A stretch of 64,000 bases of DNA, taken from positions 7,100 through 71,099 of the forward strand of contig DATBDZ010000403.1 of NCBI GenBank assembly GCA_036276235.1, read 5' to 3'. This DNA comes from Humisphaera sp. (lineage in GTDB: Bacteria; Planctomycetota; Phycisphaerae; Tepidisphaerales; Tepidisphaeraceae). Of the stretch, positions 10,393-53,907 are shown one piece after another (the first letter of the stretch is position 1; each line of letters opens with the position of its first letter). Under the pieces are notes generated by a model. The model saw nothing but the letters and a program-made list of their open reading frames with translations, ran no database searches and was not told where the DNA came from. The position numbers were made by a program, and so were the translations under genes.

Positions 10393-11097
10393 CTATACTC
10401 CGGTCGGCACCGTCCCACATTCCGGGCAGCGGCCTGGCGTAGCTCGGAGGTCGTAGCCGCACGAGGAGCACAGAGACAGATTACGCCTGCGCGATTGGCG
10501 ACGATGTAGCCGCAGCCAGGTCATTGGCAGAGGCGCGAAAACCACCAGGAAAATCCAATATGGTATGCCGACGTTCACGACTCTGGTCTGCATCACGTCT
10601 GCTCGCGATCCCCAGAAGGGATGTGATCCGACGTACCAATCGGGGCGCAGGTTCGCAGGGAAGCCCTGCAACGGGCCGCTCGTACCTCGTGGTTGGATCT
10701 TCCATCGCCACTGTCCGGGTTGCTCTACCCAGTCCTTGTTGAACTTAGGGTTGTTCGTCTCCGCACCTTCGGACGACCAACGCAGAATGCCATCTTGTGA
10801 CCAAAGCTGCCAATTGAGCCAATACAGATTCTTGCCGTACGGCGAGAGCGACGTATGCTCAATGAACATTTCTTGCCGGAAGTTAGAGACCCACAGCACG
10901 CAGGTCACCACACAGAACAGCGCTGATATGGTCGCCAACCCGTTCCACACGATTTGCCGCAATCGTTTCACGCCGGGCATACTAACGCGCGTCAACCGGT
11001 TTCCATATTCCGGCGACCCCGGCCGGCGGACGGGGCGCAATCGTCGCAGTTTCAGCGACTGCTTCTTCGATTGAGGGCTTCCCGCAAGTGGGCTCAT
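10393..11097 (-). CDS. membrane protein with C-terminal zinc ribbon (CSSCGYDLRATPGRCPECG)
   Basis: ORF-track protein with TM spans and a CxxCGYDLR...CPECG tail. Alternative start at ATG 10980 (MPGVKRLRQIVW...). Confidence 0.65.
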   Translation of the reverse strand: MSPLAGSPQSKKQSLKLRRLRPVRRPGSPEYGNRLTRVSMPGVKRLRQIVWNGLATISALFCVVTCVLWVSNFRQEMFIEHTSLSPYGKNLYWLNWQLWSQDGILRWSSEGAETNNPKFNKDWVEQPGQWRWKIQPRGTSGPLQGFPANLRPDWYVGSHPFWGSRADVMQTRVVNVGIPYWIFLVVFAPLPMTWLRLHRRQSRRRNLSLCSSCGYDLRATPGRCPECGTVPTGV

Positions 11098-11608
11098 TCG
11101 ACGCGCACTGACCGATGCTGCAAGCAGCAGCGGCGTTCAAATGCGTCCACGTTTTCCTGAACGCCTACGCTGCTCGCAGCGTAGGTCAGTGCGCTGTCTT
11201 TTAGGCGCCGAAAACGGAGCGGGTGGACCGGCTGCTTCCGTCAACAAGTCGTCCGTTGCCAGTTGTCCGTCATACGGCGGAGCCGAGTCTTCGAGCGACC
11301 GGATGCCCGATTATAAAAAAAAATTTTTGCGCGACGGCGTTGCCCTGCGGTCGACCGCAACTCCTGGCCGCCGTGATAGTTAACTTAATCCTAACACGCT
11401 CCGGTTTTACCGGCGAAAAAATCTTTGGATTTTTATTTTCCAAAGCCTGGTTGGAGATTTTCCTCATCGACATAACTCTTTATTTTTCAGATACTTGTGC
11501 GGCACAAAATCAGAAAAGCGAGCGAAAATCTGTTACTCCTTGAGGCTGCGTCAGTTAGCTGAGCAAAAGGATGACGCCGTGTCTGTACTATAGAGGAGGT
11601 TGTTAATG

Positions 11609-11702
11609 ACGAGGGACGAAGGGGCAAAGGGGCGGAGGCACGAAGGCACGAAGGGTCGTCGTTCCGATCTTCGCATTCTTCGTGGCCCTTCGTGCCCTTG
11701 GT
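11609..11702. repeat. octamer array (GGSACGAA units) with partial inverted partner
   Basis: gagggacgaa ggggcaaa ggggcgga ggcacgaa ggcacgaa ggg ... ttcgtggcccttcgtgccc. Same unit as at 61636-61880. Confidence 0.85.
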
Positions 11703-11811
11703 GATCGCTTGCTGCTGGTCGCGGCAAGCTGCGCGCAACAGGGTGCCGATGTTGCGCGGATTGTTGAAGGATGTTGCGCTGGACCCCGTTGGCGATTCAG
11801 AAAGAGATGTC

Positions 11812-11884
11812 TCACGCAGAGGCGCGGAGGCGCAGAGAAGAATTCAAACTCTGCGCCTCTGCGCCTCTGCGCCTCTGCGTGAGG
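11812..11884. repeat. octamer array hairpin (CTCTGCGC units)
   Basis: ctcacgcagaggcgcggaggcgcagag / loop aagaattcaaa / ctctgcgcctctgcgcctctgcgcctctgcgtgag. Confidence 0.9.
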
Positions 11885-12205
11885 TCTCTTCTTCCGTGTC
11901 GGGAAACATGCAACAGGAGTGTATGAATCAAGATGATTCAAGATTTGATTCACTTTGTTTCGTCGGCGGTCCACGCCGCGGGAAACTGCGTTCGGCGTTC
12001 CACGTTGCGCTAGGAGAATCCGGGCCCTCGCCCGAGGCTCGTTCCCGGCGTGGCGGTTGGGATGCGGGTATCGAAGGGTTTCCCCAAACTCTGCGCTAGG
12101 CGACCGAGGGGCGGGGATTGCGAAGGTTTTCTTCTGGCTCCTGGCTTCTGGCTCCCGGCTTCTTTTCTTGTCCCATGCAACGTGCAACGGGTGTAATCGG
12201 TCGCG

Positions 12206-12272
12206 GTAGGGACGGCGGTTGCCCGCCGCCCCCCGCACGGATCCCGGCGTGCAGAATTACCGCACCGGGCTC
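12206..12272 (-). ncRNA. group II intron domain V + domain VI-like hairpins
   Basis: Domain V (12240-12272, minus) is GAGCCCGGUGCGGUAAUUCUGCACGCCGGGAUC, with an AGC triad at positions 2-4 and a 2-nt CG bulge on the 3' strand. Domain VI has a GCAA tetraloop helix with a single bulged U 7 nt from the ...CCCUAC end at 12206. Confidence 0.55.
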
Positions 12273-12363
12273 TTGCCTCGGATCAAACGCATGATGATTG
12301 CTCGTCACGCGCGGCCCGCTCCGGCTCTTGTTGCAGATCTTCAAGGCTGCCTCGCGGCAGCCT

Positions 12364-12519
12364 TTATTCGGCTCTGTGTCCGATCAACCTGCTTTGCCGT
12401 CGGGCACTCTCTTTGGCCAGGCCCCTTCCCTCCATCCTCTCCGCGGGCAGCGGCGCGCCGCCGTTGTTCGAGGACTTCGCAGGTACTACGAGCCTGTCCG
12501 ACTTCCCGCCGCCGTGCAT
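12364..12519 (-). pseudogene. remnant of intron-encoded protein (N-terminal leader only)
   Basis: Hand translation: MHGGGKSDRLVVPAKSSNNGGAPLPAERMEGRGLAKESARRQSRLIGHRAE*. No RT motifs follow it. Confidence 0.45.
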
Positions 12520-12958
12520 CGCCGTCGTGTCCTTGTGGGTTCACGGCGCGGACCTGTGCCTTAGCGCAGGTCGGTGGCGGGATCTCCCGGCTTCCGTCGG
12601 GGAAACAGAGGTTTCCCCTCGCGAGGTGCTTGCGTGCGTGCATGGGGTCTTCGACCCCGCGGGACCCGAATCGCTCTCGCGTGGCGAGCGACCGGTGTTG
12701 CCTTCGATCTCAGTTGAAAACCTCGGCATCCCGGAGGACACCATTTCGGGGCTCAATGGCCAGCCCGCACGTACCCCTGTCAACGCTTCGACTGCATCCT
12801 TGCGAATGCACCCGCATGACTCGGGGCCGGTGTGGCTCGCTACGCCTTCACCGTATGGAACTCTCATCCACAACACCTCGCCGGCTTTGGCCGGCGCGCC
12901 AACCGGATGGTGCAGAAAACGGTGCGAAAGGATGCATTGGGTCGAGGCCATGTCCGAT

Positions 12959-12990
12959 CCTGAAACTTGAAACCCGAAACCTGAAACCCC
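12959..12990 (+). repeat. GAAACCC-type heptamer array upstream of purB
   Basis: cctgaaactt gaaaccc gaaacct gaaaccc c. Same strand as purB, whose ATG is at 13055. Confidence 0.85.
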
Positions 12991-13054
12991 TTAGCAAGCT
13001 TCGCTTTGCCGATCGTCTTTCCCGCTTGGCCCCCCGCCTCTACAATCGCGCGGG

Positions 13055-14491
13055 ATGGCTCATGACATTTATGAATCTCCTTTGGTGACGCGAAACGCCA
13101 GCGCGCAGATGCTGCGGCTGTTTTCGCCTCTGCATAAGTTTGGGCTCTGGCGGCGGCTTTGGCTGGAGCTGGCGCGCTGCGAGAGGGAATTGGGGATCAC
13201 GGATAAATCGGGCGCGGCGCGGATCAGTGAGCAGGCGATCGCGCAGATGCAGGGGCATCTGGATGATATCGATTTTGCCAGAGCCGCCGATTGGGAGAAG
13301 CGGCTGCGGCATGATGTGATGGCGCATGTGCACACGTTCGAGGAAGCCGCCCCGGCGGCCAAGGGGATCATTCACCTGGGGGCGACCTCGCAATATGTAG
13401 TGGACAATGCGGATCTGATCATCATGCGCGATGCGATGAAGCTCGTCGCGCAGCGCCTGGCGGCGGCGATCGTGGCGCTGGGCGAGTTTGCGATGAAGTG
13501 GAAGGATTTGCCGACGCTGGGGTATACGCATTTTCAGCCGGCGCAGCTGACGACCGTCGGTAAGCGCGCGACGCTTTGGGCGCAGGATCTGGTGATCGAT
13601 CTGGAGGAGATCGAGCATCGAATCGCCACGCTGCGATTTCGCGGTGTGAAAGGGACGACCGGAACGCAGGCGTCGTTTCTGGGATTGTTTGAGGGAGATC
13701 ATGCGAAGGTCGAGCAGTTGGATCGGATGGTGACGGCGCGGTTTGGGTTTGCGGAATCGTTTGCCGTCACGGGGCAGACTTATCCGCGGAAGATCGATGC
13801 GCAGATTGTGGGGAGCCTGGCGGGGATAGCCGCCAGCGTGCATAAGTTTTGTAATGACATTCGGCTGCTGGCGGGGTTGAAGCAGATGGAGGAGCCGTTT
13901 GAGAAGGAGCAGGTGGGCTCGAGCGCGATGGCGTACAAGCGCAATCCGATGCGCTGCGAACGGGCGACGGGATTGGCCCGGTTTGCCATTAGTTTGGCCA
14001 GTTCACCCCTTCAGACGGCGGCCGAGCAATGGTTTGAGCGGACGCTGGATGATTCATCTAACAAGCGGCTGGCGATTCCGGAGCCATTTTTGGCAATTGA
14101 TGGATGCTTGCAGATTGTGATCGATGTGGCGCGCGGGTTGGAGGTTTATCCAAAGACGATTGAGGCGGCGGTGCGAAGCGAGCTGCCGTTCATGGCAACC
14201 GAGGAGATTCTGCTCGCCGGCGGCGATCGCCAGGAGCAGCATGAGCGGATTCGTCAGCATTCGCAGGAAGCGGCGCGGCAAGTAAAGATGCACGGGAAGT
14301 CCAACGATCTGCTGGATCGGCTTAAGGGGGATGCAGCTTTTGCAGGCGTTCGATTTGAAGAGGTGCTTGAGCCGAGCCGGTTTATTGGCCGGGCACCGCA
14401 GCAGGTGGAAGCATTTGTAAAGGGGGTGGTTGATCCGGTGGCCGATCGGTATCGTCAGGCAAGCAGACAAAGTATTGAATTGAAGGTTTAG
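13055..14491 (+). CDS. purB: adenylosuccinate lyase
   Basis: 478 aa. N-terminal YESPL..R....M..LFS block and the fumarate-lyase signature GSSAMAYKRNPMRCE. Confidence 0.95.
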   Translation: MAHDIYESPLVTRNASAQMLRLFSPLHKFGLWRRLWLELARCERELGITDKSGAARISEQAIAQMQGHLDDIDFARAADWEKRLRHDVMAHVHTFEEAAPAAKGIIHLGATSQYVVDNADLIIMRDAMKLVAQRLAAAIVALGEFAMKWKDLPTLGYTHFQPAQLTTVGKRATLWAQDLVIDLEEIEHRIATLRFRGVKGTTGTQASFLGLFEGDHAKVEQLDRMVTARFGFAESFAVTGQTYPRKIDAQIVGSLAGIAASVHKFCNDIRLLAGLKQMEEPFEKEQVGSSAMAYKRNPMRCERATGLARFAISLASSPLQTAAEQWFERTLDDSSNKRLAIPEPFLAIDGCLQIVIDVARGLEVYPKTIEAAVRSELPFMATEEILLAGGDRQEQHERIRQHSQEAARQVKMHGKSNDLLDRLKGDAAFAGVRFEEVLEPSRFIGRAPQQVEAFVKGVVDPVADRYRQASRQSIELKV

Positions 14492-14871
14492 CGGCCGATT
14501 CGGTTGAGTCCGCCCCACTTGATTCGGCTCCGAAGTTAACATGCCATTAGCGCAAAATCTGCCAAGAATCAAATTGTGCTGGCGAGGATTATCGGGTAGA
14601 CTCCCCACGGCCGTACAGTGCGCATCCCTTGTATCGATTGCGTATTGTTGCTGTGGGCGGCGTTGCAGGCGCTATAGAATGCAGATTCAGTGGTTGGAGG
14701 CCAGTTGAACTGCCGCCTTTGCCTGTTTTTTTTGTTGATGCGATGGGACGGCCAGAGTAGTTTTAGAAGTGGGCTAAGGGTGAAATCCTTGGCATTTCCA
14801 GCGGGCTGTGTGGCTGCGGGAAATCACTTCCGGCGAGAAAATGCGATGTATTGCCCCGGAGGGACTTTAAG

Positions 14872-16287
14872 ATGAGCGGAAAAATGCGCAAAAAGCGAGT
14901 TGGCCTGCTCGCGGGGGGATTGTGCCTAGGCATGATCCTGTCCAACGTGGGTCACTCGACTGTTAAAGCGGCGACGCCCCAGTTTTTTGACTGGAGTGTG
15001 CCGGCTGAATCGGGCGGGGCGAATTACACGCCGGCTCCTTTCCTTGATGACACTAACTTTGCGTCGGTCGATGCATTCCTCGCGGCACGCGCCGCCAATC
15101 CTGCGAATTTGCTCGCGGTGAAAGTGGTTTCGCCGCTGAAAAGCGCAGGCGCGAAGGCGATTTTCAACAAGTACAAAATCAATTACGTCTTCGCTGACTT
15201 TGAAAGCACGACCGCGCTGGCGAATACTCAGACTCTTGTCACGACTGTCAAAGCCTCTTCCAAATCGGGTGCGGCGTTCATCGGCGACTTCAGCATGGCG
15301 CCGTTGAGCAGCGACCCGACCCGCCCCAGCGGACTGGGCAGTACGACGCCCGTCGCCAGCGGTAAGCATTCGCTCTTTACGCCATCGCAATATCAGCAGG
15401 CGAAAGTGAACATGGCCAATCCCGCGCTGTACCCCGGCGCCCCGGATTTCCGCAATCTGGCTGACGGCAATGCGCCGACCGCCCCCAACATTCGGTCTTC
15501 GCTGTTTGTTCTGCCGATCCAGCGGCTTTCGCTCACGAAGCAGGCTCTTCCCTCGGGGCAGAAGTTGATTCCGTGGGTCAGCCGTTTCAATAACTGGGGC
15601 AACAGCGGCTTGGATACGGACCACAATGCGGCCGACGGTTATTCGTTCGTGCAGGCAGCCGCCAACCCCGCGAATGGCCAGCTTCTGTCGCGCGGCGACT
15701 TTGAAGCACAGATCCTTCACTACCGCATGCGCGGCGCCGATTCAGTCAGCCTGTTCAACTACAGCAATCCCCCTTCGAGCGTGGTCGGTTATACCAGTTC
15801 GACGGAACGTTCGGATGCGCTGACCGGCTGGAATCAAAGTGCGGCTGCCGCCGTGTTCAATCGCGGGCACTATGCGCTTGCCAACCAAGGCACCACGGCA
15901 ATCGTCAATCCGTTTGTTCAAGTGAGCAGCGAATCGGTGGGTGTGCTCTGGTCGGGCGTCTACGACACGACCGGCACGACTCGGCAATTGGTCGTGTTGA
16001 TCAGCAATTTGGGCACCAAGAACCAGGTGATCGACATTCCAAAAGTTGGCGGCATCCCAACGTTCGAGACGTCAATCCCGACCAACGGGCATGACGACTA
16101 CGCCATTAATGCCGGCGAGCATCGGATTGTGACGTTCAATCTGAAGGGCGGAAAGTGGATGGTTGCCAGCGACGTTGCCGCCTTCACGGACAACAACCGT
16201 AATGGTGTCGGCGTCCCCGAGCCGGCTTCGATCGGGCTTCTGGCGGTTGGCGGAGCGGGAATGCTCCTCCGTCGCCGTCGCCGATAA
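14872..16287 (+). CDS. PEP-CTERM-anchored secreted protein, unknown function
   Basis: Signal peptide. C-terminus VPEPASIGLLAVGGAGMLLRRRRR is a PEP-CTERM sorting signal. ATG 14872 lies 8 nt after GGAGGG; the ORF-track TTG at 14851 is less likely. Confidence 0.8.
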   Translation: MSGKMRKKRVGLLAGGLCLGMILSNVGHSTVKAATPQFFDWSVPAESGGANYTPAPFLDDTNFASVDAFLAARAANPANLLAVKVVSPLKSAGAKAIFNKYKINYVFADFESTTALANTQTLVTTVKASSKSGAAFIGDFSMAPLSSDPTRPSGLGSTTPVASGKHSLFTPSQYQQAKVNMANPALYPGAPDFRNLADGNAPTAPNIRSSLFVLPIQRLSLTKQALPSGQKLIPWVSRFNNWGNSGLDTDHNAADGYSFVQAAANPANGQLLSRGDFEAQILHYRMRGADSVSLFNYSNPPSSVVGYTSSTERSDALTGWNQSAAAAVFNRGHYALANQGTTAIVNPFVQVSSESVGVLWSGVYDTTGTTRQLVVLISNLGTKNQVIDIPKVGGIPTFETSIPTNGHDDYAINAGEHRIVTFNLKGGKWMVASDVAAFTDNNRNGVGVPEPASIGLLAVGGAGMLLRRRRR

Positions 16288-53833: not shown

Positions 53834-53907
53834 TGGGCCCGAGAAGAGTCGAACTTCTGACCTCGTCCTTATCAGGGACGCGCTCTAACCAACTGAGCTA
53901 CGAGCCC
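53834..53907 (-). tRNA. tRNA-Ile (anticodon GAU)
   Basis: Hand-folded cloverleaf: GGGCTCG TA GCTC AGTTGGTTA GAGC G CGTCC CTGATAA GGACG AGGTC AGAAG TTCGACT CTTCT CGGGCCC A. CCA is not encoded. Confidence 0.9.

Follow-up and report, generated by a model that had tools for sequence, protein, structure and literature searches.

A group II intron without its own reverse transcriptase gene in an intergenic spacer of Humisphaera, and the intron family around it

How does a group II intron come to lie in a bacterial intergenic spacer without a protein of its own, and is such a copy a ruin or a sound ribozyme? The question is raised by a repeat-dense, non-coding tract in a stretch of 64,000 nucleotides (nt) from Humisphaera sp. 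(contig DATBDZ010000403.1, positions 7,100 to 71,099 of the forward strand; hereafter the window), in which a reading made from the sequence alone had placed a degenerate group II intron lacking the reverse transcriptase (RT). We find that window 12899..12200, on the minus strand and 700 nt long (5' GCGCG ... CCUACCGCGAC 3'), is a group II intron without its own RT/maturase gene, and that its six RNA domains (D1 to D6) are all present, in canonical order and near the consensus of the family. We put a probability of roughly 80% on the element being a non-autonomous descendant of a bacterial group II intron, without the open reading frame (ORF) of its ancestor and mobilised in trans by the RT of a relative. 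Coordinates below are those of the window, and intron features are on its minus strand.

The 5' half of the element is identified by D1, whose core at 12645..12864 matches the full length of the Rfam model RF02005 (group-II-D1D4-6, model positions 1-225). In a scan of the whole window this match scored 188.3 bits against a gathering score of 49 (E 3.4e-55), which equals the D1 score of intact copies, as RT-encoding relatives reach 184-193 bits with the same model. The end of D1, D2-D3 and the 5' side of D4 (12369..12644) are colinear with RT-encoding relatives. Profiles built from the family, with the window copy among their seeds, match 12898-12370 at the 5' side (E 3.5e-151) and 12283-12200 at the 3' side (E 2.3e-23). 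The order of the domains is not permuted: D1 (12864-12645) and D5-D6 (12272-12200) lie on one strand and are colinear with full-length relatives.

The 3' part was placed by alignment to the Rfam model RF00029. D5 is the 33-nt hairpin GAGCCCGGUGCGGUAAUUCUGCACGCCGGGAUC at 12240..12272, just as it had been described before: its triad AGC (12271-12269) occupies positions 2-4, a 2-nt CA bulge (12251-12250) interrupts the 3' strand, and the loop is UAAUU. D6 and the 3' terminal GAC occupy 12200..12236, with the helix at 12236-12203 and a GCAA loop at 12222-12219. The sequence-only reading had recognised this GCAA-capped helix as D6 and had let the intron end at 12206; the helix is there, whereas the end lies at C12200. 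The misplaced boundary had also produced a U at the branch position. In the correct register the bulged branch base is A12207, 7 nt ahead of the final base C12200, and the intron ends in ...GAC, in agreement with the AY rule for 3' ends, while U12212 forms a second small bulge or a wobble pair.

Applied to the 141 nt of 12170-12310, RF00029 matches 12274-12200 with all 77 model positions at 31.3 bits (E 6.7e-5), which is below its gathering score of 40; it returned no D5/D6 match at the gathering score in the whole window, nor at E<=10 in 11800-13300. The covariance-model check that had been proposed for this tract therefore gave a clear answer for D1, full-length and well above threshold, and a sub-threshold one for D5-D6. 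The intact RT-encoding relative L002 is likewise sub-threshold with RF00029 (35.4 bits against 40), and the low score is a property of the lineage, not a defect of the window copy. Scores are low because D5 of this lineage has G·A at the triad, where RF00029 has G·U, and a loop that is not GNRA (the UAAUU pentaloop in the window). The G facing an A (G12270 and A12242) had been listed as an oddity of the locus. The mismatch is present, but the triad pair, 5-33, is non-standard in 50 of 50 D5 sequences of the family (G·A in 49, A·G in one) and therefore does not reflect decay. The loop is UAAUU or UAGUU throughout the family, a trait shared by the RT-encoding copies.

Both hairpins are further supported by covariation in 50 distinct 75-nt family sequences, with 500 shuffles and slid partners as controls. 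Standard pairs filled 95.9% of the D5/D6 cells, compared to 84.6% after shuffling and 42-51% with slid partners, and 13 pairs had changed on both sides (9.4 shuffled, at most 5 slid); none of the 500 shuffles reached the observed value for any D5/D6 measure. D5 contributed 13 counted pairs, four of them changed on both sides, and D6 contributed 14, nine of them changed on both sides, with 99.4% of the D6 cells paired. The D5-D6 3' end of the window copy is also 74% identical over 91 nt to that of an RT-encoding intron (E 3e-13). One might still suspect a chance resemblance, or an assembly artefact that fused the 5' and 3' fragments of an intron, given an RF00029 score below the gathering score and a 3' end that whole-window scans missed. 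The E-value of the D1 match, as well as the recurrence of the same layout (5' part, D4 remnant, 3' part) in dozens of independent contigs and metagenome-assembled genomes (MAGs), makes this explanation wholly improbable.

The ends of the element were defined by relatives at unrelated sites, by the end of the RF00029 alignment and by the pairing between exon-binding site 1 (EBS1) and intron-binding site 1 (IBS1). At the 3' end, likeness to L002, L004 and L096 decays at C12200 (...CCCUACCGCGAC) or a few bases beyond, and the RF00029 alignment terminates at the same base. At the 5' end, L001 and L003 begin with GUGCGCCGG... after unrelated flanks and the window aligns to them as GCGCGCCGG, so that G12899 is the first base of the intron, a position that is fixed because the EBS1-IBS1 pairing abuts it. 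The 5' end proposed earlier, GUGUUG at 12876, lies 23 nt inside the intron, in sequence conserved in all relatives. The true 5' end (12895..12899) reads GCGCG and thereby departs from the GUGYG pattern; GUGCG is the family consensus and is found in L096 and most relatives, while G1 and G3-C4-G5 are kept in the window. Across the family, intron position 2 is mostly U, with A in several RT-encoding copies and G in the full-length copy L100.

What has been lost becomes clear from the alignment to L002. Window 12887-12369 aligns with L002 1-543 and window ~12291-12200 with L002 1947-2038, and the intervening 77 nt of the window (12292..12368) replace L002 544-1946, the entire RT gene. The deletion in D4 thus spans ~1.3-1.4 kb and covers the whole RT body, with a remnant of ~77 nt in its place that holds a hairpin (12364-12343, AAGGCUGCC-GCGA-GGCAGCCUU) and the deletion junction near 12310-12300. 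L002 itself displays the complete layout: D1 at 26-261 (RF02005, 193 bits), a leader at 365-517, an ORF of 466 codons at 560-1960 and D5-D6 at 1964-2038. Its ORF is a group II RT/maturase according to TIGR04416 (337.5 bits, cutoff 300) and also matches RVT_1. The central claim of the sequence-only reading, a group II intron without the RT/maturase body, is borne out by these results, namely the full-length RF02005 match of D1, the homology of D5/D6 to RT-encoding relatives and the TIGR04416 match of the relatives' ORF. Likeness to an intact group II intron, which had been named as decisive, is found with L002 and other RT-encoding relatives, which align on both sides of D4.

Part of the intron-encoded protein (IEP) is still legible in the window. 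The three reading-frame strings that had been taken for read-throughs of D1 and the IEP leader occur in minus-strand ORFs at 12541..12951, 12341..12643 and 12364..12519. The last of these is a 51-codon remnant of the N-terminal IEP leader (MHGGGKSDRLVVPAKSSNNGG...), and its stop (12366-12364) was measured at 91 nt ahead of the D5 hairpin, close to the estimate of about 90 nt. We considered that the 51-residue frame might be a gene in its own right and rejected this, because its homologues in relatives were called as short genes that precede the RT ORF or are fused to it. Five such short homologues were found, and their contigs yielded the full-length relative L002; in L087 and L115 the same leader opens a continuous IEP frame fused to the RT. 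Compared to L087 and L115, which are closer full-length relatives than L002, the window retains approximately the first 70 codon equivalents (to ~...LDRVRQAA, the start of RT-0) and the last ~10, and the deletion runs from ~...LDRVRQAA to ~...HPYPxQRL near the C-terminus. A tblastn search of the window with the L087 IEP frame recovered residues 1-72 only, and no other RT. The element hence accounts for 700 nt of seemingly non-coding DNA and for the three ORFs, which are spurious.

The 5' flank of the intron (12900..12913) carries the complements of two loops in D1. IBS1 (CGGUUG, 12905-12900) pairs over 6 bp, right up to the splice site, with EBS1 (CAACUG, 12711..12716), which forms part of a D1 hairpin loop. 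IBS2 (GCACCAU, 12913-12907) pairs over 7 bp, at an offset of 7, with a candidate EBS2 (AUGGUGU, 12738..12744); a target matching the window intron would read GCACCAUCCGGUUG/C. In 51 copies of the family the EBS1 loop co-varies with the 5' exon, with a mean longest match of 6.0 compared to 4.15 +/- 0.16 when exons were shuffled among copies (200 shuffles, control maximum 4.65), and most EBS1 pairings of the family abut the splice site. The EBS2 signal is weaker across the family and still above controls (mean longest match 4.55 compared to 3.99 +/- 0.12 in exon-shuffled sets). This complementarity to the 5' flank supports the view that the element was probably inserted by RNA-guided targeting.

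With regard to its class, the lineage to which the element belongs combines a IIB-like RNA, equipped with EBS1 as well as EBS2, with an IEP that shows no recognisable endonuclease (En) domain. Pfam recognises only RVT_1 in the IEP of relatives, and matches to proteins of known structure (LtrA, GsI-IIC, T.el4h and others) all lie near 1e-40, which does not discriminate among the IEP and RNA classes (D, E, F and g-groups). Class C (IIC) was considered and discarded: an EBS2-IBS2 pairing of 7 bp is present, and the minus-strand 5' flank contains no terminator-like site.

The state of the ribozyme was judged by columns conserved in at least 95% of the RT-encoding copies. The window copy differs at 3 of 158 such columns in the 5' part and at none of the 45 in D5-D6. 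An adjacent CG/GC swap accounts for two of the three differences and may be an alignment effect; among full-length copies, the corresponding counts are 0-3 (rarely more) and 0-2. To judge from its sequence, the ribozyme is not degenerate: the copy is as near to the consensus as RT-encoding ones, and the label it had been given fits the lost ORF only. Two features set the window copy apart. One is the C at intron position 2, and the other is a 23-nt hairpin at 12597..12619 (GGGGAAAC-CUCU-GUUUCCCC), which is missing from the other aligned ORF-less copies save its sister L096, located at a different site.

Did the RT gene disappear before or after the intron reached this spacer? Along the whole of the intron, L096 shows 93.8% identity to the window copy, with which it shares the D4 remnant and the 23-nt hairpin; it begins with GUGCG, and its flanks are unrelated. 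The differences between the two copies cluster in the EBS1 and EBS2 loops, and each copy matches its own 5' flank. L004 is 80% identical by BLAST (83% mean column identity by MAFFT), colinear through D4 and differently flanked, and L107, at 82.6% identity, aligns end to end with the window copy, again between unrelated flanks. The copies with the same deletion (94%, 83% and 80% identical) come from soil metagenomes. As the D4 remnant is shared at sites with differing flanks, the deletion predates these insertions, and the ORF-less form itself has moved. A full-length intron that was inserted at this locus, lost its RT gene in situ and never moved as an ORF-less form would be in keeping with the recurrence of ORF loss in the family (L160 compared to L115, below); it is hard to reconcile with L096 and L004, which are colinear through the same D4 remnant and yet have other flanks and other EBS loops, or with the end-to-end alignment of L107, and we consider it highly unlikely.

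The same copies speak to a possible role for the host. Good conservation despite the missing ORF, and a location within a 2-kb non-coding spacer between divergent genes, could be expected of a domesticated ribozyme or regulatory RNA that controls, for example, the minus-strand neighbours or purB. However, near-identical copies in unrelated contexts with retargeted EBS loops are the behaviour of a mobile element, and no conserved synteny was detected for the intron itself. We therefore give domestication even less credence than loss of the gene in situ.

The alternative that deserves most attention is that the window copy is the same ORF-less intron, now inert: a fossil that no longer splices or moves and has not yet decayed. 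The change from U to C at position 2, private to this copy, could indicate inactivity, the window provides no IEP, and an inactive copy in an intergenic place would cost the host nothing. Moreover, other ORF-less copies visibly decay, with the branch-point A replaced by G in L022 and L066 and with 17 and 15 conserved positions changed in L022 and L147, respectively. Against this stand the very few conserved positions at which the window copy differs, its perfect EBS/IBS pairings, the sister of 94% identity at another site and the fact that position 2 varies (U, A, G) even among RT-encoding members. On balance, we regard an inert relic as unlikely, if clearly the strongest of the alternatives.

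Under the favoured reading, a dependent intron mobilised in trans, the element would be transcribed within a minus-strand RNA, and the RT/maturase of a full-length relative in the same cell would bind the intron RNA in trans and aid its folding and splicing. Splicing would follow the branching pathway, in which A12207 attacks the 5' splice site, and the resulting ribonucleoprotein would reverse-splice into DNA sites matching EBS1/EBS2, the intron then being copied into DNA. By this route the copy would have come to lie ahead of the purB-like gene, in the intergenic spacer and in divergent orientation to that gene. Related full-length copies are present in other soil metagenome contigs, for example L087. 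Several observations weigh against this scenario. The 64-kb window contains neither an RT gene nor a second intron copy, and the trans-acting IEP is thus assumed; promoter and terminator scans of 11000-13200 gave nothing informative on minus-strand transcription; and the RF00029 score falls short of its gathering threshold. In addition, the C at position 2 is private to the window copy among 51 copies with a defined 5' end, and the comparison loci were gathered by exact D5 or D6 patterns, by which the D5/D6 conservation counts are partly forced.

The wider family places the window copy in context. Exact D5 or D6 patterns were used for two collection scans, which together recovered 166 loci in many phyla and in metagenomes of soil and peat; one of the two, a metagenome scan with the D6 pattern, found 104 loci. 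An earlier metagenome scan with a 39-nt D3 pattern found nothing. Copies were classed by the distance between the 5' profile match and the D5-D6 match, which yielded 53 full-length copies, 31 ORF-less copies (window included), two with larger internal deletions, three with odd spacing and 81 of which only the 3' end was recognised, matching sequence upstream being absent or too short. ORF-less copies thus make up 31 of the 84 with both ends resolved, a share that is inflated, as short contigs accommodate short elements more readily.

The ORF has been lost repeatedly within this family. L160 (266-1010) is 99.6% identical to L115 (1284-3270) in its 5' part and differs by a clean deletion of 1240 nt, from ...LDRVRQAACRD to YPDVRLRVI..., and represents a very recent and independent loss. 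Its break-points are nearly those of the window lineage and of other lineages, and the full-length copy nearest to the ORF-less ones differs from one sublineage to the next. A covarying hairpin lies at the 5' break-point (CGACAG..CUUGUCG in L115, CGGCAGG..CCUGCCG in L087). We tentatively propose, with somewhat less than even confidence, that the window copy is one of many non-autonomous group II introns in soil and sediment bacteria, a population that is large and has been under-counted. Such introns would arise by recurrent, near-identical D4 deletions that keep the start of the ORF (to ...LDRVRQAA) together with the hairpin, possibly an RT docking site; they would be retargeted through EBS1/EBS2, some of them homing onto the 3' ends of siblings, and they would be missed by surveys based on ORFs or on the RF00029 threshold.

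Dependent, ORF-less "hitch-hiker" retroelements of this kind are already known, and the window copy is a further example. In Thermosynechococcus elongatus, the ORF-less TeI3 introns carry a deletion in D4b, keep remnants of the ORF from both its N- and its C-terminal part and pair well with their flanks through EBS/IBS. When they were combined with IEPs of related introns in mobility assays, some of these "driver" IEPs proved able to mobilise them (Mohr, Ghanem and Lambowitz 2010, PMC2882425). The window element shares with TeI3 the removal of the RT ORF by an internal D4 deletion, the remnants of both protein termini, the intact ribozyme and the good EBS/IBS complementarity. In both cases several copies with the same break-points occupy different sites, mostly outside genes, and have diverged in target specificity, and both families contain nested or adjacent copies (twintrons in TeI3; 5' fragments and head-to-tail pairs in L004, L081, L073 and L159). 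The two systems also differ. The TeI4 IEPs have an En domain and their RNA is chloroplast-like IIB, whereas the IEP of the window lineage has no recognisable En domain and its RNA matches RF02005. All ORF-less copies of T. elongatus derive from one deletion, whereas the window family lost the ORF repeatedly at near-same break-points. Finally, trans-mobilisation is experimental in T. elongatus, whereas for the window element it is deduced by comparison.

Bacterial ORF-less introns have been described as rare and as usually occurring alongside related IEP-encoding introns (Zimmerly and Semper 2015, PMC4424553, a review that sums up work on such introns in bacteria and archaea by Simon et al. 2008 and by Dai and Zimmerly 2003); the 31 of 84 found here stand in contrast to that rarity, with the reservation about short contigs made above. 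ORF-less introns have also been counted genome-wide, using RF00029 matches above 24 bits (Miura et al., PMC8919778). As an RT-less intron sequence in intergenic DNA, the element resembles the RmInt1-related remnant of Sinorhizobium (PMC4181065); unlike remnant or truncated introns, which lack part of the ribozyme, it keeps both ends and all domains. While the single window copy adds an example and leaves the overall picture unchanged, the frequent and recurrent loss of the ORF at the level of the family, together with a D5 variant that falls below the Rfam threshold, is the more interesting lead. Repeated ORF loss combined with retargeting is what has been suggested as one step on the way to a splicing machinery that is shared and acts in trans (PMC2882425).

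A number of individual copies merit description. The metagenome contigs L073 (1-1000) and L159 (1-1020) each contain two ORF-less copies head to tail. The EBS1 loop of the second copy in L073, GUCGCG, complements CGCGAC, the last 6 nt of the family 3' end; accordingly, the second copy is found precisely at the first one's 3' junction. In L004 (94-139) and L081 (3164-3317), a complete copy is immediately preceded, in the same orientation, by a 5' fragment of another copy, an arrangement that is nested or resembles a twintron. L022 (3047-3730), a decaying member that differs at 17 of the 158 conserved 5' positions, and L066 (426-1100) are ORF-less copies in which the branch-point change reads CCUGCCGC. 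The Hydrogenedentota MAG JAWODE01 holds at least eight D5-D6 copies (L008, L012, L027, L046, L051, L054, L062 and L064), three of them resolved as ORF-less; with most sharing the 3' flank CGTCCTCCGTTGCCGGAG and many placed at the ends of contigs, they look like a high-copy repeat. Within a plasmid collection, introns with 60-90% identity to window D1-D3 occur on 4374 records, of which 3710 are from Klebsiella, and the best match (NZ_CP068711.1, 32528-33031, Burkholderia thailandensis) has an annotated ltrA just downstream.

L132 (607-712) is a 105-nt mini-derivative composed of the first ~76 nt and the last 30 nt of the intron, 97-100% identical to the window copy. At a distance of 200 nt downstream, the same contig carries DNA with 72% identity to window 11295-11518, an AT-rich and non-coding-looking segment with a TTTTTATAAT motif on the minus strand.

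The element itself lies within an ORF-poor spacer of ~2 kb, flanked on one side by the purB-like gene (13055-14491, plus strand; 478 residues, read by eye from the sequence as adenylosuccinate lyase) and on the other by minus-strand ORFs ending near 11097. A second ORF of 478 residues, at 14851-16287 on the plus strand, has a PEP-CTERM-like tail. At gathering score, the only Rfam match in the window besides RF02005 is a tRNA at 53834-53907 on the minus strand (71 bits). The spacer is rich in repeats, located at 12959-12988, 12131-12163, 11793-11901 and 11103-11194; they include a 14-mer present 2.4 times and two inverted repeats, one with 45-nt arms built of CGCAGAGG octamers and one with 37-nt arms. 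The first three of these sites were considered as parts of the element and rejected, as likeness to other copies stops at the intron ends. The repeat at 12959-12988 is a tandem array of the heptamer CCTGAAA (4.3 units), and the full-length relative L087 has the same heptamer repeat in its 3' flank, there on the opposite strand.

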